Shown here: positions 1 through 32,213 of the stretch, piece after piece | How the letters are laid out: each line of letters starts with the position of its first letter | Position numbering within the stretch: the first letter of the stretch is position 1 | Source: a virus | Lineage: Duplodnaviria > Caudoviricetes | Virus record (IMG/VR): IMGVR_UViG_3300011403_000027 | Location: 1-32,213 of that record | Reading direction: 5' to 3' (one strand) | Length of the DNA stretch: 32,213 nt | The notes under the pieces: generated by a model | The model's input: only the letters and a program-made list of their open reading frames with translations | Told to the model about the DNA's origin: nothing | Database searches by the model: none | Program-made: the position numbers and the translations under genes

Positions 1-99
1 CTGGGCGAGGCCGTGGAGGACGGCTACGTCCCGCCGCCCATGCAGGCCCGGTGGGCGGAGATGTACGAGGAGCGGCGCCGCGCCGTCCGAACGGTTTAG
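1..99 (+). CDS. 3' end of a hypothetical protein (truncated by window)
   Basis: Frame 1 reads LGEAVEDGYVPPPMQARWAEMYEERRRAVRTV* with GC-rich third positions; TAG at 97-99. Confidence 0.6.
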   Translation: MGEAVEDGYVPPPMQARWAEMYEERRRAVRTV

Positions 100-130
100 C
101 TTAAAACGCGTAATCAAAAACGGTCACCAG
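86..130 (+). repeat. Junction element A (most degenerate copy)
   Basis: TCCGAA CGGT TTAG CTTAAAACGCG TAATCAAAAACGGTCACCAG. TTAR and AAACG are in register with the other copies; it overlaps the stop at 97-99. Confidence 0.4.
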
Positions 131-138
131 AGAGCGCC

Positions 139-408
139 ATGAACACCAGGAAGCAGCACAACGGGATGGCGCGGGAGGCGCGGTTGCGTACCCTCTCGCC
201 GCAGTGGGGCGCCTGCGCGGTCTGCGCGGCGCCGCTCATCTTCGGGAACATCGAGGGCTGCTGCGGGGAGCGGTGCCACCGAAAGGCGCAGCGGGTGCGC
301 TCGGCGGCCCAGCGGGCGCTCGCGCTGAACGACCAGGCGGACGGCTCCTTCCCGGTCGGCGCCGAGCAGGGGGCGCCGCGGCTCCGTCCGGGTGAGGGCG
401 AGGGGTGA
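139..408 (+). CDS. Small Cys-rich hypothetical protein
   Basis: CAVC...CCGERC; ATG follows junction element A. Confidence 0.55.
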   Translation: MNTRKQHNGMAREARLRTLSPQWGACAVCAAPLIFGNIEGCCGERCHRKAQRVRSAAQRALALNDQADGSFPVGAEQGAPRLRPGEGEG

Positions 409-610
409 CCGGGTGTGGCCCGGTGGGCTCTACGGGGCGCCGGCCGATGCGCCGGTCACGTTCGCCCTGGCGGACGACGGGACGTGGGCGGTGACGCTGG
501 ACCCGCCATGGAAGGACGACGGCCTCGACATTGGCCGGTTCCGCACGCTCGAGGAGGCGGTCGCCTTCGTCTACGGGCCGCCAGTCGTGCAGCTCGCCCT
601 GACCCTGTGA
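392..610 (+). CDS. Hypothetical protein ending QLALTL
   Basis: High GC3, globular-looking sequence; stop falls within junction element B. Confidence 0.65.
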   Translation: MRARGDRVWPGGLYGAPADAPVTFALADDGTWAVTLDPPWKDDGLDIGRFRTLEEAVAFVYGPPVVQLALTL

Positions 611-648
611 GCGTTAATCCGCCCTAACTCACAAGAAACGAGGTTCCA
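604..648 (+). repeat. Junction element B
   Basis: CCTGTG AGCG TTAA TCCGCCCTAAC TCACAAGAAACGAGGTTCCA. The last 20 nt are 18/20 identical to copy F. Confidence 0.85.
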
Positions 649-650
649 CG

Positions 651-896
651 ATGACCGAGGAGCAGCTCGACGACATCCGCGAGGGAGCCCGGTCCATCCT
701 CGACGGTCACGACACGGACGCGGACGTGATCCGCCTCGCGCAAGACCTGTGCGACCTGGTGGACGAGGCGAAGCGCCGGGGCGCGGTCATCACCCAGATG
801 CAGCAGGCCATCGACTACGACGGCGACACCGTGCCGGAGGATGAAGAGGCCGAGCGGCGGCAGATGCTCGGCACCTACCTCCGCGACCACGCCTAG
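651..896 (+). CDS. Hypothetical acidic helical protein
   Basis: 81 aa, high GC3; ATG begins 3 nt after the end of element B. Confidence 0.75.
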   Translation: MTEEQLDDIREGARSILDGHDTDADVIRLAQDLCDLVDEAKRRGAVITQMQQAIDYDGDTVPEDEEAERRQMLGTYLRDHA

Positions 897-930
897 CGCC
901 TTAGCGTGAGCATCGTAATGCGAGGTTCCA
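886..930 (+). repeat. Junction element C
   Basis: ACCACG CCTA GCGC CTTAGCGTGAG CATCGTAATGCGAGGTTCCA. CACG and CGAGGTTCCA are in exact register with the other copies. Confidence 0.7.
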
Positions 931-931
931 G

Positions 932-1147
932 ATGGACAAGCCGAGCTGGTGCCAGGGGGCCGGCGAGCGGTGCCCCCATCCGGTCGCTTGGCGGTTGGAG
1001 CAGACCGACCACGGCCGGCGCACGGTGACCTACATCGAGCTATGCGCCGGGCACACCGAGGCGCTCCGCGCCGAGCCGACGTTCGCCGTGCTCCTGCGCG
1101 ATGGCGTCGTCCGCGCCCTGCCGGTCACGAGTGTTAACTCGCACTAG
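932..1147 (+). CDS. Small hypothetical protein, possible Zn-binding (C-x6-C ... C-x2-H)
   Basis: CQGAGERC...LCAGH; flanked by elements C and D. Confidence 0.7.
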   Translation: MDKPSWCQGAGERCPHPVAWRLEQTDHGRRTVTYIELCAGHTEALRAEPTFAVLLRDGVVRALPVTSVNSH

Positions 1148-1168
1148 GACGCATGAAACCGTATTTTG
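1124..1168 (+). repeat. Junction element D
   Basis: GTCACG AGTG TTAA CTCGCACTAGG ACGCATGAAACCGTATTTTG. Contains the upstream stop and the methyltransferase ATG. Confidence 0.8.
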
Positions 1169-1872
1169 AGGACGGCGGGATCACCGTCTACAACGCCGAC
1201 TGTCGGGACGTGCTGTCCGGCATTGCGACGGCCGACGTGGCGCTGGTGCTGACTGACCCGCCCTACGGCGTTAACGTGCGGACGGATCGACACACCGCCG
1301 GACGGGGTCGCGCCCGGCCGCGTCCCGGCGCTGGGGCCGCGAGCGCCAACGACTTCCCCCCGGTCTACGGTGACGACGCGCCCTTCGACCCGGCGCCGCT
1401 GCTGCGCTTCAAGCGGGTGGTGCTCTTCGGGGGGAACCACTACGCCGACCGGCTCCCGCCGTCCGCGTCGTGGCTGGTCTGGGACAAGGTGGACGGACTG
1501 ACGAGTAAGCGCGGCGTCGGGTTCAACGACAACGCCGACGGGGAGCTGGCCTGGACGAGCCTGGGCGGCCCGGTGCGCATCTACGCGCACCGCTGGATGG
1601 GGCTGGTGAAGGACAGCGAGCGCCGGGAGCGCCGGCTGCACCCCACCCAGAAGCCCGTCTCGCTTATGGCCCAGATCATCGGCCAGCACACGAAGCCGGG
1701 GGACCTGGTGCTCGACCCCTACGCGGGCAGCGGCCCGGTGGTGCGGGCGTGCCGCGACCTCGGCCGGCGGTGCATCGCCGTGGAGATCGTGGAGGCGTAC
1801 TGTGCGGTTATCGTCGAGCGGCTGCGCCAACTCGCCCTGCCGCTCGACCACGCACGCCCACTCGCACGATGA
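1153..1872 (+). CDS. DNA N6-adenine/N4-cytosine methyltransferase (beta class, orphan)
   Basis: Catalytic DPPY precedes HPTQKP and the SAM-binding DPYAGSG motif; no adjacent restriction nuclease. Confidence 0.93.
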   Translation: MKPYFEDGGITVYNADCRDVLSGIATADVALVLTDPPYGVNVRTDRHTAGRGRARPRPGAGAASANDFPPVYGDDAPFDPAPLLRFKRVVLFGGNHYADRLPPSASWLVWDKVDGLTSKRGVGFNDNADGELAWTSLGGPVRIYAHRWMGLVKDSERRERRLHPTQKPVSLMAQIIGQHTKPGDLVLDPYAGSGPVVRACRDLGRRCIAVEIVEAYCAVIVERLRQLALPLDHARPLAR

Positions 1873-1891
1873 AGCATGAAAGGAGGTTCCG
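1847..1891 (+). repeat. Junction element E
   Basis: ACCACG CACG CCCA CTCGCACGATG AAGCATGAAAGGAGGTTCCG. Positions 1860-1881 are 19/22 identical to 1137-1158 in element D. Confidence 0.8.
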
Positions 1892-1893
1892 CG

Positions 1894-2190
1894 ATGGATC
1901 TCTGGTATCGGCTCAAGGGCAGGGCGCCGGTGCTCGATCCTACCCACCAGCTCCAGCCCATCGACGAGCGCCGCATCGCCCGGACGGCGATTACGCCTGA
2001 GGTGTATGTCTCCACGGTCTTCCTGGGCCTCGACCACCGCTACACCCCGGAGGGGCCGCCGATCCTCTTCGAGACGCTGGTATTCGGGCTCAGTGCGGAC
2101 GGCGACGAACCGCAAGAGCGGTACACCACCTACGAGGCGGCCGAGGCGGGGCACGCCCGGTGGGTCGAGTGGGCGCGTCACGCATCTTAA
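1894..2190 (+). CDS. Phage hypothetical protein (VSTVFLGLDH...PILFET motif)
   Basis: Motif recognised from phage accessory regions; AGGAGG precedes the ATG at 1894. Confidence 0.8.
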   Translation: MDLWYRLKGRAPVLDPTHQLQPIDERRIARTAITPEVYVSTVFLGLDHRYTPEGPPILFETLVFGLSADGDEPQERYTTYEAAEAGHARWVEWARHAS

Positions 2191-2221
2191 CGGCACTTCT
2201 GTCGCAAGAAACGGGGTTCCA
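2177..2221 (+). repeat. Junction element F
   Basis: GTCACG CATC TTAA CGGCACTTCTG TCGCAAGAAACGGGGTTCCA. The TTAA supplies the upstream TAA stop. Confidence 0.85.
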
Positions 2222-2222
2222 G

Positions 2223-3011
2223 GTGCGACGCATCGTCTCAGTGAGCGGCGGGATGCAGTCGGCCATCTGCGCCGACCGGGTCATCGAACGCTACGGCGCC
2301 GCCAGCGTCACCGCCTGGTTCGCGGACACGCTGGTCGAAGACGTCGACCTGTACCGCTTCCTGGACGACCTGGAGCGGCGCTGGGGGCTGACCATCACCC
2401 GGCACACGGAGGGGCGGACGCCGCTCCAGGTCGCCGAGGACGAGCACGTCATCCCCAACCAGAAGATCGCCCCCTGCACCCACCGGCTGAAGATCGAGCC
2501 CTTTTTGGCGTACCTCAAGGCGTGCCCCAAACCGGCGACCGTCTACCTGGGGATGGCGTTCTGGGAGCAGCACCGGATGGACGCGCCCCGGAAGCGGTAC
2601 GAGGCGGTCGACGGCGTGGCGGTGGACTACCCATCCCTCTGGAAGCCGGTCGACTACCGCCCCCCCGACGAGGTGCTCCGCTCCTGGGGGATCGCCGTGC
2701 CCCGCGCCTACCTCGAAGGGGCGTCACACAACAACTGCGGCGCGGCGTGCGTGAAGCAGGGCAAGGGCGACTGGCTACGCCTGCTGCGCTGGAAGCCCGA
2801 CCTGTTCCGCCAGTACGAGGAGTGGGAGACGGGGATGCGGGCCAAGGGGCCGCCGTGGGACGGCTACGCCTTCTGCCGGGACGAGCGGGGCGGGGTGGTG
2901 CGCCCGGTGACGCTGCGGGAGCTGCGCGAGACCAGCCAGGCCAGCCCGCAGCTCCGGCTCGACCTGCCCATGCTGGACGACGCCGAGGGGTGTCTCCAGT
3001 GCTCGATCTGA
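2223..3011 (+). CDS. PAPS-reductase-like PP-loop (adenine nucleotide alpha-hydrolase) protein
   Basis: N-terminal IVSVSGGMQS, FADT..ED.DLYRFL, Cys cluster HNNCGAACVK, C-terminal CLQC. GTG at 2223 follows element F. Confidence 0.8.
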   Translation: MRRIVSVSGGMQSAICADRVIERYGAASVTAWFADTLVEDVDLYRFLDDLERRWGLTITRHTEGRTPLQVAEDEHVIPNQKIAPCTHRLKIEPFLAYLKACPKPATVYLGMAFWEQHRMDAPRKRYEAVDGVAVDYPSLWKPVDYRPPDEVLRSWGIAVPRAYLEGASHNNCGAACVKQGKGDWLRLLRWKPDLFRQYEEWETGMRAKGPPWDGYAFCRDERGGVVRPVTLRELRETSQASPQLRLDLPMLDDAEGCLQCSI

Positions 3012-3053
3012 AACGCTGTTTTTTGTGATCTAACAGCGCTTAACGCTCGTGAC
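3009..3053 (-). repeat. Junction element G (inverted copy between convergent stop codons)
   Basis: Reverse complement reads GTCACG AGCG TTAA GCGCTGTTAGA TCACAAAAAACAGCGTTTCA. The first 14 nt are 13/14 identical to D; internal dyad CGCTGTT-N11-AACAGCG. Confidence 0.8.
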
Positions 3054-3264
3054 CCCGAGACGGGGCGAGCGCGGCCACGGCGGCGCGGCGGGAGTGGACG
3101 CCGAGCTTCCGGTAGACGCCCTCGACGTGCGTCTTGACTGTCTCCTCGGAGACGCCCAGCGTGCGGGCGAGGTCCCGGCGCCGGTCGCCCCGGAGGAGGC
3201 CGGCCGCCACCGCGGCCTCACGCGGGGTGAAGGGGCGACGGCCGTTCAGCCGGCGGCGCCCCAC
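3040..3264 (-). CDS. Stand-alone LuxR/GerE-type HTH protein
   Basis: FTPRE...LARTLGVSEETVKTHVEGVYRKLGVHSR matches the LuxR C-terminal HTH pattern. Confidence 0.88.
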   Translation of the reverse strand: MGRRRLNGRRPFTPREAAVAAGLLRGDRRRDLARTLGVSEETVKTHVEGVYRKLGVHSRRAAVAALAPSRGHER

Positions 3265-3469
3265 CGGTCGCCTCCGCGCACGTCGCCCGGTGCGCCCGGA
3301 ACGTCCGCCACGTCGTGCTGCGGTGGCCGCAGGCCGTGCAGGTCAGGTGGCGGAGCCGGAGCGGCCCCGTCCTGGCCCACACCCCCGTCGAGAAGTGGTC
3401 GTCCGAAACGATCCGCCCCGCCGCCGCCGGGTGTCCAGGGCGAACGGCGCTCGGCCGCGTACCGCTCAC
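3218..3469 (-). CDS. Possible C2HC zinc-finger protein (start uncertain)
   Basis: CTAC-x12-H-x3-C; high GC3 only from about 3410 downward; overlaps both neighbours. Confidence 0.4.
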   Translation of the reverse strand: MSGTRPSAVRPGHPAAAGRIVSDDHFSTGVWARTGPLRLRHLTCTACGHRSTTWRTFRAHRATCAEATGGAPPAERPSPLHPA

Positions 3470-3575
3470 GGTCGCGCTCCCGCTGGCACGCCCGGCAGAC
3501 CCGGCCCCGCCCGTCTGCCCGGAGGGCGGTGTTCGCCGCGTCGAAGGGGTGCCCGTTGACGCAGTGGCTTTTCAA
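3246..3575 (-). CDS. Small protein with HNH-associated Zn module (HCxNGH...CRAC)
   Basis: KSHCVNGHPFDAANT...GRVCRACQR resembles the Cys/His module attached to many phage HNH proteins. The distal half has poor GC3. Confidence 0.55.
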   Translation of the reverse strand: MKSHCVNGHPFDAANTALRADGRGRVCRACQRERDRERYAAERRSPWTPGGGGADRFGRPLLDGGVGQDGAAPAPPPDLHGLRPPQHDVADVPGAPGDVRGGDRWGAAG

Positions 3576-3588
3576 CCCCCTCGCCCGC

Positions 3589-3741
3589 TCACGACGCGAA
3601 GAGCCACGCCACCGCGAAGAAAAAGAGCCCGGCGTTCGTGAGCGAGAACCGCGGGGGCGCCGGCGGCGACCAGAGCGCCGCGACGGCGAAGATGACCGCG
3701 GAAATTAGGACGCAGATGAGCCTCGGCCCGACGGCGATCAT
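3589..3741 (-). CDS. Two-TM small membrane protein, holin candidate (50 aa, not in ORF track)
   Basis: MIAVGPRLICVLISAVIFAVAALWSPPAPPRFSLTNAGLFFFAVAWLFAS; AGGAGG SD; directly downstream of the endolysin. Confidence 0.7.
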   Translation of the reverse strand: MIAVGPRLICVLISAVIFAVAALWSPPAPPRFSLTNAGLFFFAVAWLFAS

Positions 3742-3753
3742 GTCCTGCTCCTC

Positions 3754-4659
3754 CTACCCGTTCCAGCTCACGGCGCCGTCCGTGGCCTTCCAGACGCAAA
3801 CTCCCTGTTCGAACTCCTGCCAGACCCCGTCCTCGATCGTGTGCTCTTCCCCGCGCGGGCGGCCCCGGTAGACGCCCCGGTGCAGCTCGTCGCACCAGGC
3901 GGTGGCGGTGGCGCTCTCCGGGTTGTACGGGACGCCGGCTTGCTGGTACAGATCGGCCAGCACCCAGCCCTTGAGCTGCCAGTCCTGCAGCACCGCCATC
4001 ACGACCTCCTCCGGTGCGCCCTGCACCTTCGCGCTCGCCGCGTGCCACCAGTCCAGCGGCCGGTAGTAGGCCGCCTCCACCTGCGCCCGCGACCACTGGT
4101 AGGGCCACTGCCAGAAGCCCTGGGCCGGCGGCCCCTTCAACAGTTCGAGGTGTAAATGCGCGCAGGCCCAGCCGCCGCTGCGCCCGACCCAGCCGAGGCG
4201 CTCGCCCGGGGCCACCCGCTGGCCGACCCGCACCGCGATCGCCTGGAGGTGGTCGACGTGCAGCCAGGTCGGTCCCGGGGCCACCTCGTCCGTCAGCTCG
4301 AGCCAGACGTGGTTCCCTTCCCCGCGCCGGGAGCCGTCCCAGGGCAGCGCCGCGCGCACCACGCCGGCCAGCGGGGCGACCGCGTCCAGCCCCTCGTCGG
4401 CGTTGCAGCCCCCCGTGCCGGCGCCGCCGTTCAAATCCGCCCCTGGGTGGAGCGTCTGCGGCACCCCGGCGGCATCCCGGTCGGTGGCGTCGAGCCAGCC
4501 GAAGCCCCCCCGGAGGACGTCCGGGGGCGTCAGGCCCGCCATCGGGGCGTACAGGCGCTCACCGACGGAGAGGAGGCGCTCCCGGCCGGTGGGGGCGCCC
4601 TCGCCGATGCGCAGCCCGTGCTGCCCCGGCTGGGGGGTGGGGGCCGGCCGGGCGGTCAC
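3754..4659 (-). CDS. Endolysin, M23 family peptidase with C-terminal putative wall-binding domain
   Basis: HPGAD (HxxxD) and AHLH (HxH) Zn ligands; C-terminal WQEFEQGVCVW resembles LGFP-like repeats. Confidence 0.88.
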   Translation of the reverse strand: MTARPAPTPQPGQHGLRIGEGAPTGRERLLSVGERLYAPMAGLTPPDVLRGGFGWLDATDRDAAGVPQTLHPGADLNGGAGTGGCNADEGLDAVAPLAGVVRAALPWDGSRRGEGNHVWLELTDEVAPGPTWLHVDHLQAIAVRVGQRVAPGERLGWVGRSGGWACAHLHLELLKGPPAQGFWQWPYQWSRAQVEAAYYRPLDWWHAASAKVQGAPEEVVMAVLQDWQLKGWVLADLYQQAGVPYNPESATATAWCDELHRGVYRGRPRGEEHTIEDGVWQEFEQGVCVWKATDGAVSWNG

Positions 4660-27535: not shown

Positions 27536-28129
27536 ATGGAGCCGAACGGGTGCGACCCGACCGATCCGAGCGAGACGGCCCCCGCGGCGACGCCAGGGCG
27601 GCTCCCGGCGACGCTCTACGAGCGGTGGCGGACGGCGCTCCACATCGACGGGGTCGCCTACGGCAAGCGCGTCCACGCGCTGCGCGAGGCGAAGGGGTGG
27701 ACGCTCAAGGACCTCCACGACCGGACGGGCGTCCCCATCTCCACCCTCTCCGAGCTGGAGAACGGCCTCTCCCACCGCCCGAAGCAGGCGCTGAACATGA
27801 CGCTCGCGCAATGCTTCGGGTATGAGCACCCCGGCGCGCTCCTCGGCCTGGAGGAGACGCCCCACCCGCCGGGGACGCACCCGAACGGGCCGCGGCGGGC
27901 GGTGCCGCCGCCGGAGCCGGTGCCGGGTCTCGCGACCGAGGCGGAGCGGCTCCTCACCGGCCTGCTGCGCGGGCTCTGGACGGCCCAGGACGAGCGGGGC
28001 GACCGCCGCGGGCGCGTCACCCGCCTGGTGACGCTGACGGTCGGCCTCGCCGAGCTGGCCGAGGACCCACCGGCCCCGCCGCCCGCCTCACGCGGGGACG
28101 AGGAGGGCGCTGAGCTGGCGCAAGAGTGA
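27536..28129 (+). CDS. Repressor-like XRE HTH protein
   Basis: YGKRVHALREAKGWTLKDLHDRTGVPISTLSELENG; no S24 peptidase domain evident. Confidence 0.85.
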   Translation: MEPNGCDPTDPSETAPAATPGRLPATLYERWRTALHIDGVAYGKRVHALREAKGWTLKDLHDRTGVPISTLSELENGLSHRPKQALNMTLAQCFGYEHPGALLGLEETPHPPGTHPNGPRRAVPPPEPVPGLATEAERLLTGLLRGLWTAQDERGDRRGRVTRLVTLTVGLAELAEDPPAPPPASRGDEEGAELAQE

Positions 28130-29848
28130 AGCGTCGTAGCGGAAGCGAGCGCCACAGATAGGTGCCGCTACGACGGATGACGCCGCCCGCGCCGGCCACT
28201 CCACCACCAGGGGCGCGATCCGCCCCGCCGCCACCTGCGCCGGCGGGGGCACCCGCACCGTCGCCCCGTTCCCGGGCACCGCCGTCCCGTCCCCGAAGCG
28301 GGGCACGAAGCGGTCGATCCACCAGCGCCGGGCGCCGGCCCGCCCCGCGGCGGCGACGGTCACCTCGCGGAACGCCAGCGCGTAGGCCCGGAGTTGCTGG
28401 TCGGGGTCGAGCGCGTCGAACGCCTCGAGCGGCGCCGCCCGCAGCAGGCGCAGATCGGCGGCCAGCTCGACGTCCGCCTCGCGCTGCGCCCGCTCCCGCG
28501 CGACCGTCTGCTCGAGGCCCGCGATCTCCACCTCCGCCTCCGCGATGATGTCCTCCATCGTCGCGCTGGGGCGCTCGAAGTTGCGCCGGCCGGCCTCCCT
28601 GGCGCGCTCCCGGAGGAACAGCAGCCGGCGCTCGCCGTCGGACGGGGCGTGCTCGCGGTGCTGGCGCTCGAGCTCCGCGGCGACGGCCTGCCCGTCGAGC
28701 AAGACGCGCTCAAGCTCCGTGCGGAGGAGGGCGCCCGCGGCGCGGTCGGTGATCCGCAGGGGCGCGGGGCAGCCCGCGTTGGCGACGCGCCGGCAGCGGT
28801 ACGTCCCGGCGCCGCACCCGATCAGGAAGTCCCCGCACCAGGCGCAGCGCAGGAGGCCGCCGAGCGGGTGGGGGTGGCGCCGCTCGCGGGTGCGGAGCGC
28901 GCGGGGGTTCTCGAACTTCTCGCGCCACGCCATCACTTTGCTCCGGCTCCAGTAGGCGAGATCGGGGCGGTGGTGCTTGAACTGGAGGAAGCCTCCCTTG
29001 CCGTCGCTGGCGAACTTCCGCCAGACGGCGCTCCGCTTCGGGCCGAGGCCCTCCCCGAACGACCACTCCCCGTAGTAGATCGGGCGGTAGAGGATGCCCC
29101 GGATGGTCTGCTTCGTCCAGGCGGTGGAGACGTGCGCCTCGCCCTTCGGCCGCTTCGCGTTGCCGGGGCCGTTGCCCCGGAAGGGCGGCCGCCGGACGCC
29201 GTCGCGGGTGAGGCGGGCGATGATCTGGCCGTACGATGCGCACTCGTCGTAGGCGCGCTCCAGCGCCGCGATGATCCCGGCGTGGTCGGGGTGCTTCCGG
29301 GGGAGCTTGTCGAACTTGTCGACGCGCTCGGTCGGAACGCGCTCGGTGTAGTAGCCGATCGGCGGACGCTGGAACATGACGCCCTTGCCGACCGTGCGGA
29401 AGACGCCATCCCAGAAGGTGTTGCGGGTCGAGCGCCAGTCGATCCCGGCGATCAGGCACTCGACCTGGAACTGGAGCAGGTCGCCGTCGATCGTCAGGTC
29501 GTAGTACCGCTCCGACGTCGCGAAGAGGCCCCCGGCGTCGACGATGCGCTTCGCGATCGTGGCGCCGTCGATCCCGAACTCGTCGCGGGTTAACCGCTTG
29601 ACGTCGTAGGCGGCGACCCCCTTCAGCTCGCCCCGGTCGAGGAGGTCGAGCATCTGCGTCGATACCTTCCGGAGCGCCAGGTGGGCGCCGGACGTGCCCT
29701 GCTCGTCGAACAGGCGCACCGTGTGCCCCTCGGCCCGCAGTTTGTCGGCCAGCGCGATCTGCGAGATCGAGCGGGCGTTGCCGATCTGGCGGTCGGTGGA
29801 GTTGCGGATCAGCAAGCCGATCGGCCGCGGGTCGCCGTCAGCGACCAT
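28088..29848 (-). CDS. int: Large serine recombinase (integrase)
   Basis: Catalytic IRNST, DVKRLTR, recombinase domain (PIGY...W...TIRGIL.RPIYYG), Zn ribbon CAWC...YRC...C, coiled coil. Confidence 0.93.
   Translation of the reverse strand: MVADGDPRPIGLLIRNSTDRQIGNARSISQIALADKLRAEGHTVRLFDEQGTSGAHLALRKVSTQMLDLLDRGELKGVAAYDVKRLTRDEFGIDGATIAKRIVDAGGLFATSERYYDLTIDGDLLQFQVECLIAGIDWRSTRNTFWDGVFRTVGKGVMFQRPPIGYYTERVPTERVDKFDKLPRKHPDHAGIIAALERAYDECASYGQIIARLTRDGVRRPPFRGNGPGNAKRPKGEAHVSTAWTKQTIRGILYRPIYYGEWSFGEGLGPKRSAVWRKFASDGKGGFLQFKHHRPDLAYWSRSKVMAWREKFENPRALRTRERRHPHPLGGLLRCAWCGDFLIGCGAGTYRCRRVANAGCPAPLRITDRAAGALLRTELERVLLDGQAVAAELERQHREHAPSDGERRLLFLRERAREAGRRNFERPSATMEDIIAEAEVEIAGLEQTVARERAQREADVELAADLRLLRAAPLEAFDALDPDQQLRAYALAFREVTVAAAGRAGARRWWIDRFVPRFGDGTAVPGNGATVRVPPPAQVAAGRIAPLVVEWPARAASSVVAAPICGARFRYDASLLRQLSALLVPA
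28132..28175. other. Candidate attP site
   Basis: Perfect 11-bp inverted repeat CGTCGTAGCGG-N22-CCGCTACGACG at the integrase 3' end; central dinucleotide at 28153-28154. Confidence 0.5.
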
Positions 29849-31264: not shown

Positions 31265-31479
31265 TGGAGACGGTGAAGCACTTCGAGGGGCTGCTCGCGG
31301 ACGAGCAGCAGAACGCCGCGGCGCTGGCGCGGTGCGTCCGCGAGCACGCGGAGGCGTGGCGCGAGCAGCCCGACGCGCTCCGGACGGCGGCGCAGAGCTA
31401 CGGTCGGGCGGTCGGGCGGGTCGCCGAGCTCGAGGCGATCGTCGGCGGGCTCCGCCGGCGCGCGCAGGAGGTGGCGTGA
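31264..31479 (+). CDS. Hypothetical coiled-coil protein
   Basis: Coupled at both ends (TAATG, TGATG). Confidence 0.7.
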   Translation: METVKHFEGLLADEQQNAAALARCVREHAEAWREQPDALRTAAQSYGRAVGRVAELEAIVGGLRRRAQEVA

Positions 31480-32141
31480 TGGCGGCCGAGGCGGTGGACG
31501 TCGACTACGGGCGCATCCGGCGCTGGGTAATCAAGCGGGAGGGCAAGGACTACGTCCAGTACGCCGGCCTCCTCGATTTGCTGCACCAGGAGAGCAAGGG
31601 CGACTTCGCGATCGCCACCCGGCTCGAGCAGGCGCCGACGGAGGCGAACGGCGGGCTCGCCGTCGTCTCCGCGACGGTGACGATGGGCGAGCGCACCGCG
31701 TCCGGTCTCGGCGACGCCTCGGAGGCGAGCGTTAACCGGATGATGGCACCGCACCTGATCCGGCTGGCGGAGACGCGGGCGAAGGGGCGCGCCTTGCGGG
31801 ATCTCTTGAATATCGGCCTCGTGACCGTCGACGAGCTGGGGCCGGGCGCCGCCGACGAGGCCCCGGCGCGGTCGGGCTCCGGCGCGGCGCCGCGGCGGGT
31901 TGCGCCGCCGGCCCGGGCGACGGAGGATACGATCGACATCAACGGGACGACCTACACCCGCGACGAGGTGCTCGCGGTCATGGCCGGCCGGATGAAGCTG
32001 CTCGCGGAGCAGGGGCGGCCGGTGCCCCCCGTGGGAGAGCCCGGCGGCCCGCCCCCGACCACGGCGCCGCTGCCGGAGCTGGTGAAGTACAGCGCCGACC
32101 TCCGGCGCCAGGCCGAGCCCCGCGCGGTCGCCGGGAAGTAG
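31479..32141 (+). CDS. Putative single-strand annealing protein (Rad52/Sak/Red-beta-like)
   Basis: GKDYV.YAGLL...GDAS...AETRAKGRALR...IG...DEL core followed by a low-complexity linker; SD AGGAGGT. Confidence 0.65.
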   Translation: MAAEAVDVDYGRIRRWVIKREGKDYVQYAGLLDLLHQESKGDFAIATRLEQAPTEANGGLAVVSATVTMGERTASGLGDASEASVNRMMAPHLIRLAETRAKGRALRDLLNIGLVTVDELGPGAADEAPARSGSGAAPRRVAPPARATEDTIDINGTTYTRDEVLAVMAGRMKLLAEQGRPVPPVGEPGGPPPTTAPLPELVKYSADLRRQAEPRAVAGK

Positions 32142-32143
32142 CC

Positions 32144-32213
32144 ATGGCGGGGGGCAAGACGGGCCGGCCGACCATCCACCGGGAGCGGCGGGAACTGGCG
32201 CCCGACCAGGAAG
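32144..32213 (+). CDS. 5' end of a hypothetical protein (truncated)
   Basis: ATG begins 3 nt after the upstream stop; MAGGKTGRPTIHRERRELAPDQE is open to the window end. Confidence 0.5.
   Translation, partial: MAGGKTGRPTIHRERRELAPDQE

Follow-up and report, generated by a model that had tools for sequence, protein, structure and literature searches.

Phage genome mosaicism is usually attributed to illegitimate or homology-driven recombination. Integron cassettes, which carry one or two unrelated genes per unit in direct orientation with the upstream stop codon inside the site, are marked by the attC core pair RYYYAAC...GTTRRRY and a bottom-strand hairpin and are served by IntI. Four further systems also resemble the locus under study. 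The pdif/dif modules of Acinetobacter plasmids are small accessory modules lying between sites composed of two arms with inner TAA/TTA triplets around a 6-bp spacer; the spacers form a limited GC-rich set, their identity governs exchange, and single modules are replaced between matching spacer pairs (PMC13141974). In cluster K mycobacteriophages, ESAS/SAS elements place an imperfect inverted repeat, with 17-bp arms and a 4-13 bp spacer, directly 5' of a start-associated block, and stay with their gene family (PMC3203893). The PeSLs of T4-type phages are intergenic cassettes of about 100 bp which reach from the upstream stop to the ribosome-binding site (RBS) or start, contain a sigma-70 promoter and a stem-loop terminator, form mini-circles, and promote shuffling through recombination in hypervariable regions (PMC2839356). 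Finally, SPBRE, a repeated intergenic element of the temperate Bacillus phage SPbeta, which has a serine integrase, is a 15-bp operator bound without recombination by MrpR, a phage-encoded repressor of tyrosine-recombinase fold (PMC10516654). The present analysis concerns a repeated site at the gene junctions of positions 1-3053 of IMGVR_UViG_3300011403_000027, an uncultured tailed phage with 74% GC whose whole 32,213-nt record was analysed (hereafter the window; record G000).

Across 21 sites from five records, a set partly chosen by eye, the element is a 30-bp dyad with the core G-N5-TAA-N6-YTA-N5-C, in which two arms flank a 6-bp spacer (N6); mean arm symmetry reaches 5.6 of 12 when the spacer is 6 bp long and is 2.0-3.8 for spacers of 3-5 or 7-10 bp. 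The dyad is usually followed by a 3' block with an RBS-like word and then a start codon, and in D-type sites the start codon comes from the right arm itself. Besides the window, the carriers are records G006 (locus L013 and the near-identical L012), G007 (L080 and L260), G010 and G460, the last including locus L259; one further site, in L135, was recognised by eye only. Sites are mostly co-oriented with the genes, often overlap coding ends and delimit units of one or two genes; by profile, window copies B, D, E and F are oriented alike, and only G and one L259 site score inverted.

The spacers, rather than the arms, are common to different phages. A profile trained on five window copies with the 6-bp spacer masked was run blind on four other phages and returned 11 clear sites, a twelfth G010 hit (18.8 bits) being excluded from the count as an off-register reading of the G010 terminal site. 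Nine of the 11 carry an exact window spacer in either orientation, one is off by a base and one is new; the matches become 8 of 10 when the module common to L080 and L259 is counted once, and a column-shuffle control gave a mean of 0.35 matches and a maximum of 5 in 20,000. Arm hexamers match the window in 0-2 of these 11 sites, and pairs with the same spacer have arms about as alike as those of pairs with different ones (4.75 vs 4.41 and 5.33 vs 5.41 of 9). Identical spacers occur in 20 of 162 between-phage pairs, where 0.6 are expected, vs 1 of 48 within-phage pairs, in a set partly chosen by eye. Since spacers within a genome nearly all differ, exchange between genomes is indicated rather than excision, and the integron-like array of equivalent excisable cassettes suggested in the preliminary description is not borne out. 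When a genome holds the same spacer or near-spacer twice (D/E, 13a/13b and 13w/13c), the inner triplets of one of the two copies are decayed.

Phages partly agree in the order of the spacers that they share (15 concordant vs 4 discordant, p=0.034; 9 vs 2, p=0.06, before L259 was added), and the same spacer pair can enclose different DNA. L013 and G010 differ at two slots, CGGCAC to CTCGCA (567 and 315 bp, respectively) and CTCGCA to CGCATA (1028 and 446 bp). The slot from CGGCAC to CAGCGC measures 843 bp in the window and 438 bp in L080, and that from TCCGCC to CGGCAC takes up 893 bp in L080 vs 301 bp in the soil metagenome run X21. In three of these four slots, whose terminal sites were chosen by eye, the enclosed segments share no DNA beyond the sites, and across the arrays of the window, L013, L080, G010 and L135 the shared DNA amounts to the sites and one half-gene (L013/G010). 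The spacer of site G also terminates the L080 array. Site C carries TGCGAG, the reverse complement of the D/E spacer CTCGCA, and the inverted-scoring L259 site (L259:7450-7455) has the same spacer as C (919-924) and D (1138-1143), so the C-D segment might be invertible.

Breakpoints were mapped in several relatives. In a 409-nt soil contig of depth 4.4 from run X21, the stretch 609-918 recurs at 97% identity, flanked by 61 and 38 letters that do not match; on the left a canonical left arm follows different upstream sequence, and on the right the break falls directly after TAA (918), where the commonest spacer begins. Run X20 of the same study agrees with X21 for the 609-918 module and holds site F from TAA on, inside a 988-nt contig with no other match to the window. 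Likewise, the 35-bp identity between site F and an L080 site begins at TAA, with different genes on both sides. A 929-bp module of 93% identity is common to L259 (G460) and L080 (G007), which share little else in the compared loci; on the left, the module starts immediately ahead of the TTA in an 18-bp TTA-N12-TAA unit.

Such 18-bp units, present at some junctions, may be read as two arms back to back. They were seen at window 901-918 and in L013, L080 (two), L259 (two) and L135, where they precede a spacer; they are often centred on TGCGCA, the preceding six bases end in CA in five of seven, and each unit may represent either an empty module or a site used by some other factor.

The element itself withstood statistical scrutiny in most of its copies. 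The preliminary description had proposed seven in-register copies, and five of these stand: B (604), D (1124), E (1847), F (2177) and G (3053-3009, minus strand) score 26.6-36.7 bits in leave-one-out profiles, no non-training position among 64,338 outscores any of them, and none of 20,000 own-letter shuffles of each reaches its score (0-1 of 20,000 once the 3' RBS-like block is removed). Copies A (86) and C (886) did not hold in that register: 86 and 6 non-training positions, respectively, outscore them against the genome background, and 2214 and 74 against a uniform background. Re-registered on TAA, A improves from a shuffle p of 0.26 to a weak 0.011, and C is not significant (p=0.077); site C is identical at 34 of 38 bp to a junction in phage L013. 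The TTAA of the consensus first proposed is absent from its place in A, C and E, whereas the copies do contain the stop codons and encode the C-termini DHA, DHARPLAR, RHAS and GHER, as described. The absence of the element from the other junctions is likewise confirmed: with the spacer-masked profile the rest of the window scores at most 5.1, confining the element to 1-3053. With one mismatch allowed, the core pattern recovers B, D, F and G on both strands and two single-strand matches elsewhere in the window. The dyad symmetry round the 6-bp centre and the large serine recombinase had not featured in that description.

Its proposal that the sites bound exchangeable accessory modules held up, given the different genes found between sites in relatives, two breakpoints at a spacer edge, and a profile which outscores shuffles even without its RBS part; some other breakpoints lie at the element edge or outside it. 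No excised or skipped form was seen in the low-cover contigs of six small-share runs, and contig joints with 21-24 nt sides, none of them at a site, were taken as noise. A generic repeat finder did not place the element family among its 20 largest repeats, and the element has no Rfam family match. Readings as sigma-54 promoter, LexA box or boxA, compared by eye with the usual motifs, were inconsistent across copies.

Set beside the described systems, the phage site would work like dif modules, yet it lacks their XerD arm, their alternation and the attC core. The preliminary description held that it matches neither attC nor dif; this is right in so far as no core pair is present and the site is not a canonical dif, but it overlooked a pdif-like geometry of two arms around 6 bp. 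The likeness to pdif extends to the inner TAA/TTA triplets, the small accessory modules and the limited GC-rich spacer set. Unlike the plasmid-borne pdif sites, those of the window type lie in tailed phages, are coupled to an RBS-like block and often overlap coding ends; the C/D-D/C alternation of dif modules is replaced by a mostly uniform orientation with the genes. By eye, neither the XerD arm of pdif (PMC13141974) nor that of the suggested Frankia dif (PMC3025954) occurs in any of the 21 right arms. With ESAS the site shares an imperfect inverted repeat directly 5' of a start-associated block, but its spacer is fixed at 6 bp, its variants are shared and the genes behind it are replaced. 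It likewise resembles PeSLs in running from an upstream stop to an RBS or start at shuffling points, whereas no sigma-70 promoter or terminator was found in 1-4000. The repeated intergenic position, the temperate phage and the serine integrase recall SPBRE, yet no PF00589 protein was found in the five carrier or relative records tested, a search in which a very diverged fold would be missed. Integron cassettes share the one or two unrelated genes per unit, the upstream stop in the site and the direct orientation, but no attC core pair (tested at 40-160 nt), bottom-strand hairpin or IntI was found at the phage sites. In the full-text literature searched, which left out most subscription papers, no description of spacer-matched or dif-like cassette sites in phage genomes was found; what is new here is the blind spacer test and the finding of the same spacers in small phages with different integrases.

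On balance, it appears somewhat more probable than not that the sites serve a spacer-matched, tyrosine-recombinase-type swap of gene modules between phages, catalysed in trans. The 6-bp centre is kept while both arms vary, which fits spacer-matched exchange (PMC5357621; PMC13141974) and is the opposite of what is expected of an operator; the 6-bp centre of tyrosine-recombinase sites defines the cuts (PMC5357621). In such a scheme, the junction sites would act as crossover points for a tyrosine-type recombinase, probably supplied by the host, and recombination would be most efficient between sites with matching spacers. Module excision would be rare, since each genome carries differing spacers, but two crossovers would allow phage genomes that meet in one cell to trade the DNA lying between identical spacer pairs. 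Duplicate spacers in one genome would be silenced via arm decay, and the RBS-like block after the right arm would supply a translation start to the incoming gene; unlike-spacer joins and start-codon swaps would need additional half-site or homology-driven events. A fuller version, in which small unrelated temperate phages of one soil or sediment host group share a 6-bp spacer address code, and a host or helper tyrosine recombinase swaps accessory genes slot by slot while sparing the phages self-deletion, as a natural recombinase-mediated cassette exchange, is put forward tentatively, at somewhat less than an even chance.

Several observations weigh against spacer-matched exchange. The order of spacers is not strict, CGGCAC and CTCGCA being found in both orders, and the X20/X21 evidence stems from one study with contigs of depth 2.6-4.4. 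On the right, the L259/L080 module stops at the outer boundary of a left arm and not in the core, and the core breakpoints of X21 and L259 both join unlike spacers, so that neither is the single-step product of a strict spacer-matched exchange. The genes that follow site F and its L080 counterpart differ, although the two sites have spacer, right arm and RBS block in common; swaps thus also happen at the start codon. One gene is chimeric between L013 and G010, with its breakpoint inside the gene and outside any site. The arms are degenerate and without the XerD arm of pdif, no catalyst for site exchange was found among the carrier proteins tested, and no site is present in G008 or G009, both of which share the annealase. 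On the bacterial side, model R1 gave no matching site in 98 candidate genomes or in a set of 5, and the dyad pattern occurred in 13 of 251 genomes vs about 30 control matches; since the host is not assigned, the lack of a chromosomal counterpart says little.

Much of this could also arise if the site were a regulatory cassette, an operator-like dyad with a translation-start block, whose genes are shuffled by Sak-type annealases using the repeats as short homologies, an explanation that we consider less probable but the main rival, and one that accounts well for the RBS block and the start-codon swaps. ESAS likewise have a dyad directly 5' of a start-associated block (PMC3203893); copies of the 3' block agree without a difference over 17-27 bp, whether they come from one phage or from several, and it is precisely at the start codon that genes change. 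The operon is headed by a Sak-fold protein, and G010 has a second start-associated repeat in eight copies; recombination at PeSLs and the non-recombining MrpR offer precedents (PMC2839356; PMC10516654). An operator would be expected to keep its arms and free its spacer, the reverse of the observed pattern; ESAS has a variable spacer and is tied to a gene family; no conserved hairpin accompanies the missing promoter and terminator; and no repressor is common to all carriers. The annealase-driven exchange via the sites that the preliminary description allowed for cannot be the sole engine, because the Sak family of the window is missing from G460. Recombinase exchange and annealase-driven shuffling may both operate.

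Two further explanations fit worse than either of these. It is improbable that the sites form an integron-like array from which single cassettes, each with its own spacer, leave as circles and re-enter through a one-strand exchange after TAA, even if the mostly direct orientation, the one or two genes per unit, the X21 left arm joined to a different spacer exactly after TAA and the F/L080 identity starting at TAA would suit it, and one-sided Xer reactions needing little spacer homology are known (PMC5357621). No RYYYAAC...GTTRRRY pair lies at attC distance, five of the six copies B-G have no hairpin (only G folds better than shuffles, z=-2.7, and none is common to all), no integrase of this type was found, one spacer with its right arm can be followed by different genes, the order of spacers is in part conserved across phages, and the low-cover contigs hold no excised or skipped form. 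Least probable of all is a role as attachment or secondary sites for the serine recombinase that the phage itself encodes or for the tyrosine integrase of a co-resident phage such as G460. Site G does lie at a convergent junction, where an attP could sit, and G460 encodes a phage-type tyrosine integrase approximately 1.1 kb past its array, but serine recombinases cut 2 bp apart (PMC5357621), which leaves the conserved 6-bp centre unexplained. Serine integrases are present in G000, G006 and G007, a tyrosine integrase in G460, which has no serine recombinase, and neither family was detected in the complete G010; as the serine recombinase is not in all carriers, the site is not a cognate serine att in every carrier.

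A common catalyst, which spacer-matched exchange would call for, was also sought among the proteins of the window. No Pfam tyrosine recombinase was found there, as had been noted before, and no window protein matches all five other carriers (E 1e-6, within the stretches fetched); together with the absence of Sak from G460, this places the factor common to the site carriers probably outside the phages. Among the genomes, the 3' block was found in 9 of 401 vs 1 control, none of the nine having the dyad, and a generic dif pattern in 71 of 98; these matches may be dif sites or promoter boxes and are unlike the phage arms. Four genomes of one class (G062, G066, G067 and G068) each have 3-14 matches to a dif-shaped pattern, some in palindromic pairs, which may be an operator family or multiple dif-like sites. 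A holin-like alignment gave three weak genome matches, all without sites.

A pattern scan of viral contigs gave nine loci, none with a profile-supported site; that of metagenome contigs gave 15 loci, two being the same phage and the other 13 scoring at most 13.0; and a respaced pattern gave 11 loci, with true sites solely in the L012/L013 and L080 records. No viral relatives were found by the Sak query alone, and no match in the annotated phages searched. Of 52 Sak-related viral loci, only L012/L013 have sites within their flanks, the G010 sites lying outside the flanks; 80 Sak-related genome loci showed no clear site by profile (best 21.6, in L140), and locus L199 has none. In L135, phage similarity ends just past the last codons of the lysin (L135:11575 onward) and unrelated-looking sequence follows, which may mark a prophage edge or a chimeric assembly; the genome label may therefore not be the host. 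The second start-associated repeat of G010, GAACGTGCGATG, has its eight copies at gene starts within L190:1541-6563, along with a 53-bp repeat pair of 87% identity; none of the other loci checked showed this repeat. Outside the G010 accessory run, upstream of the terminase region, lies a well-formed site whose spacer is unique (L190:7016-7062, plus strand).

The features of the array and its surroundings are collected in Table 1.

Table 1. Junction sites and genes of the accessory region, with two genes from elsewhere in the window (ORF, open reading frame; HTH, helix-turn-helix).
Feature	Position	Strand	Remarks
Site A, re-registered	93..122	+	Dyad, spacer 105-110; weak; by eye like array-terminal sites of L013 and G010
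Two small ORFs, 139-408 and 392-610	139..610	+	Between A and B; no Pfam or PHROG match
Site B	604..650	+	Dyad 606-635, spacer TCCGCC (618-623), RBS-like block, start codon at 651
81-aa orphan ORF	651..896	+	B-ORF-C stretch 609-918 recurs in soil contig with other neighbours on both sides
Site C	897..934	+	18-bp TTA-N12-TAA unit 901-918, spacer TGCGAG (919-924), RBS-like block, no right arm
71-aa ORF	932..1147	+	No Pfam or PHROG family assigned
Site D	1124..1168	+	Dyad 1126-1155, spacer CTCGCA (1138-1143); right arm gives methyltransferase start codon
N6/N4 DNA methyltransferase	1153..1872	+	PF01555, 9e-22
Site E	1847..1893	+	Second CTCGCA spacer (1861-1866); inner triplets TAA and YTA both lost; RBS-like block preserved
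98-aa ORF	1894..2190	+	No Pfam or PHROG family assigned
Site F	2177..2222	+	Spacer CGGCAC (2191-2196); 2188-2222 identical over 35 bp to L080 site
PAPS-reductase-family ORF	2223..3011	+	PF01507 below cut-off; phrog_424, 8e-36
Site G	3009..3053	-	Array-terminal dyad 3022-3051, spacer 3034-3039; junction with convergent late operon
LuxR/GerE-type HTH gene	3040..3264	-	Stop codon inside site G
Large serine recombinase	28088..29848	-	Context; not common to all site carriers
Sak/Rad52-fold single-strand annealing protein	31479..32141	+	Heads operon running into array on circular map

The minus strand of the window encodes terminase, portal, capsid, tape-measure and M23 lysin genes, and the plus-strand accessory operon (1-3011) converges with the end of this late operon. 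In a 32,802-nt metagenome contig of the same phage the window end is joined to the window start via 466 nt; the phage map is thus likely circular at about 32.7 kb, which would make region 1-3011 the tail of a plus-strand operon with the Sak/Rad52-fold annealase at its head. The top structure matches of the Sak-like protein are to phage 80a Sak (E 2e-4, with a modest TM of about 0.3), while a PDB sequence search gave no match and a cluster look-up in Atlas returned hypothetical clusters only; its closest relatives in named genomes belong to Chloroflexota and Rubrobacteraceae assemblies. The two adjacent genes after Sak start with a near-duplicate 32 bp and have similar N-termini (32145-32213, and L067:4460-4491). 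Elsewhere, the 3' ends of the serine recombinase ORF and a convergent repressor ORF overlap at 28088-28129. Accessory proteins have QLALxL near their C-termini (encoded at 592-607 and 1828-1845), which resembles a beta-clamp-binding motif.

If the sites are indeed worked by an enzyme and matched by their spacers, phages with different integrases and backbones would share an ordered pool of accessory genes via programmed joints. The question of programmed module boundaries would then be directly testable with a 30-bp site and five spacer variants, and genome engineering could gain a natural set of recombination sites that are mutually incompatible.

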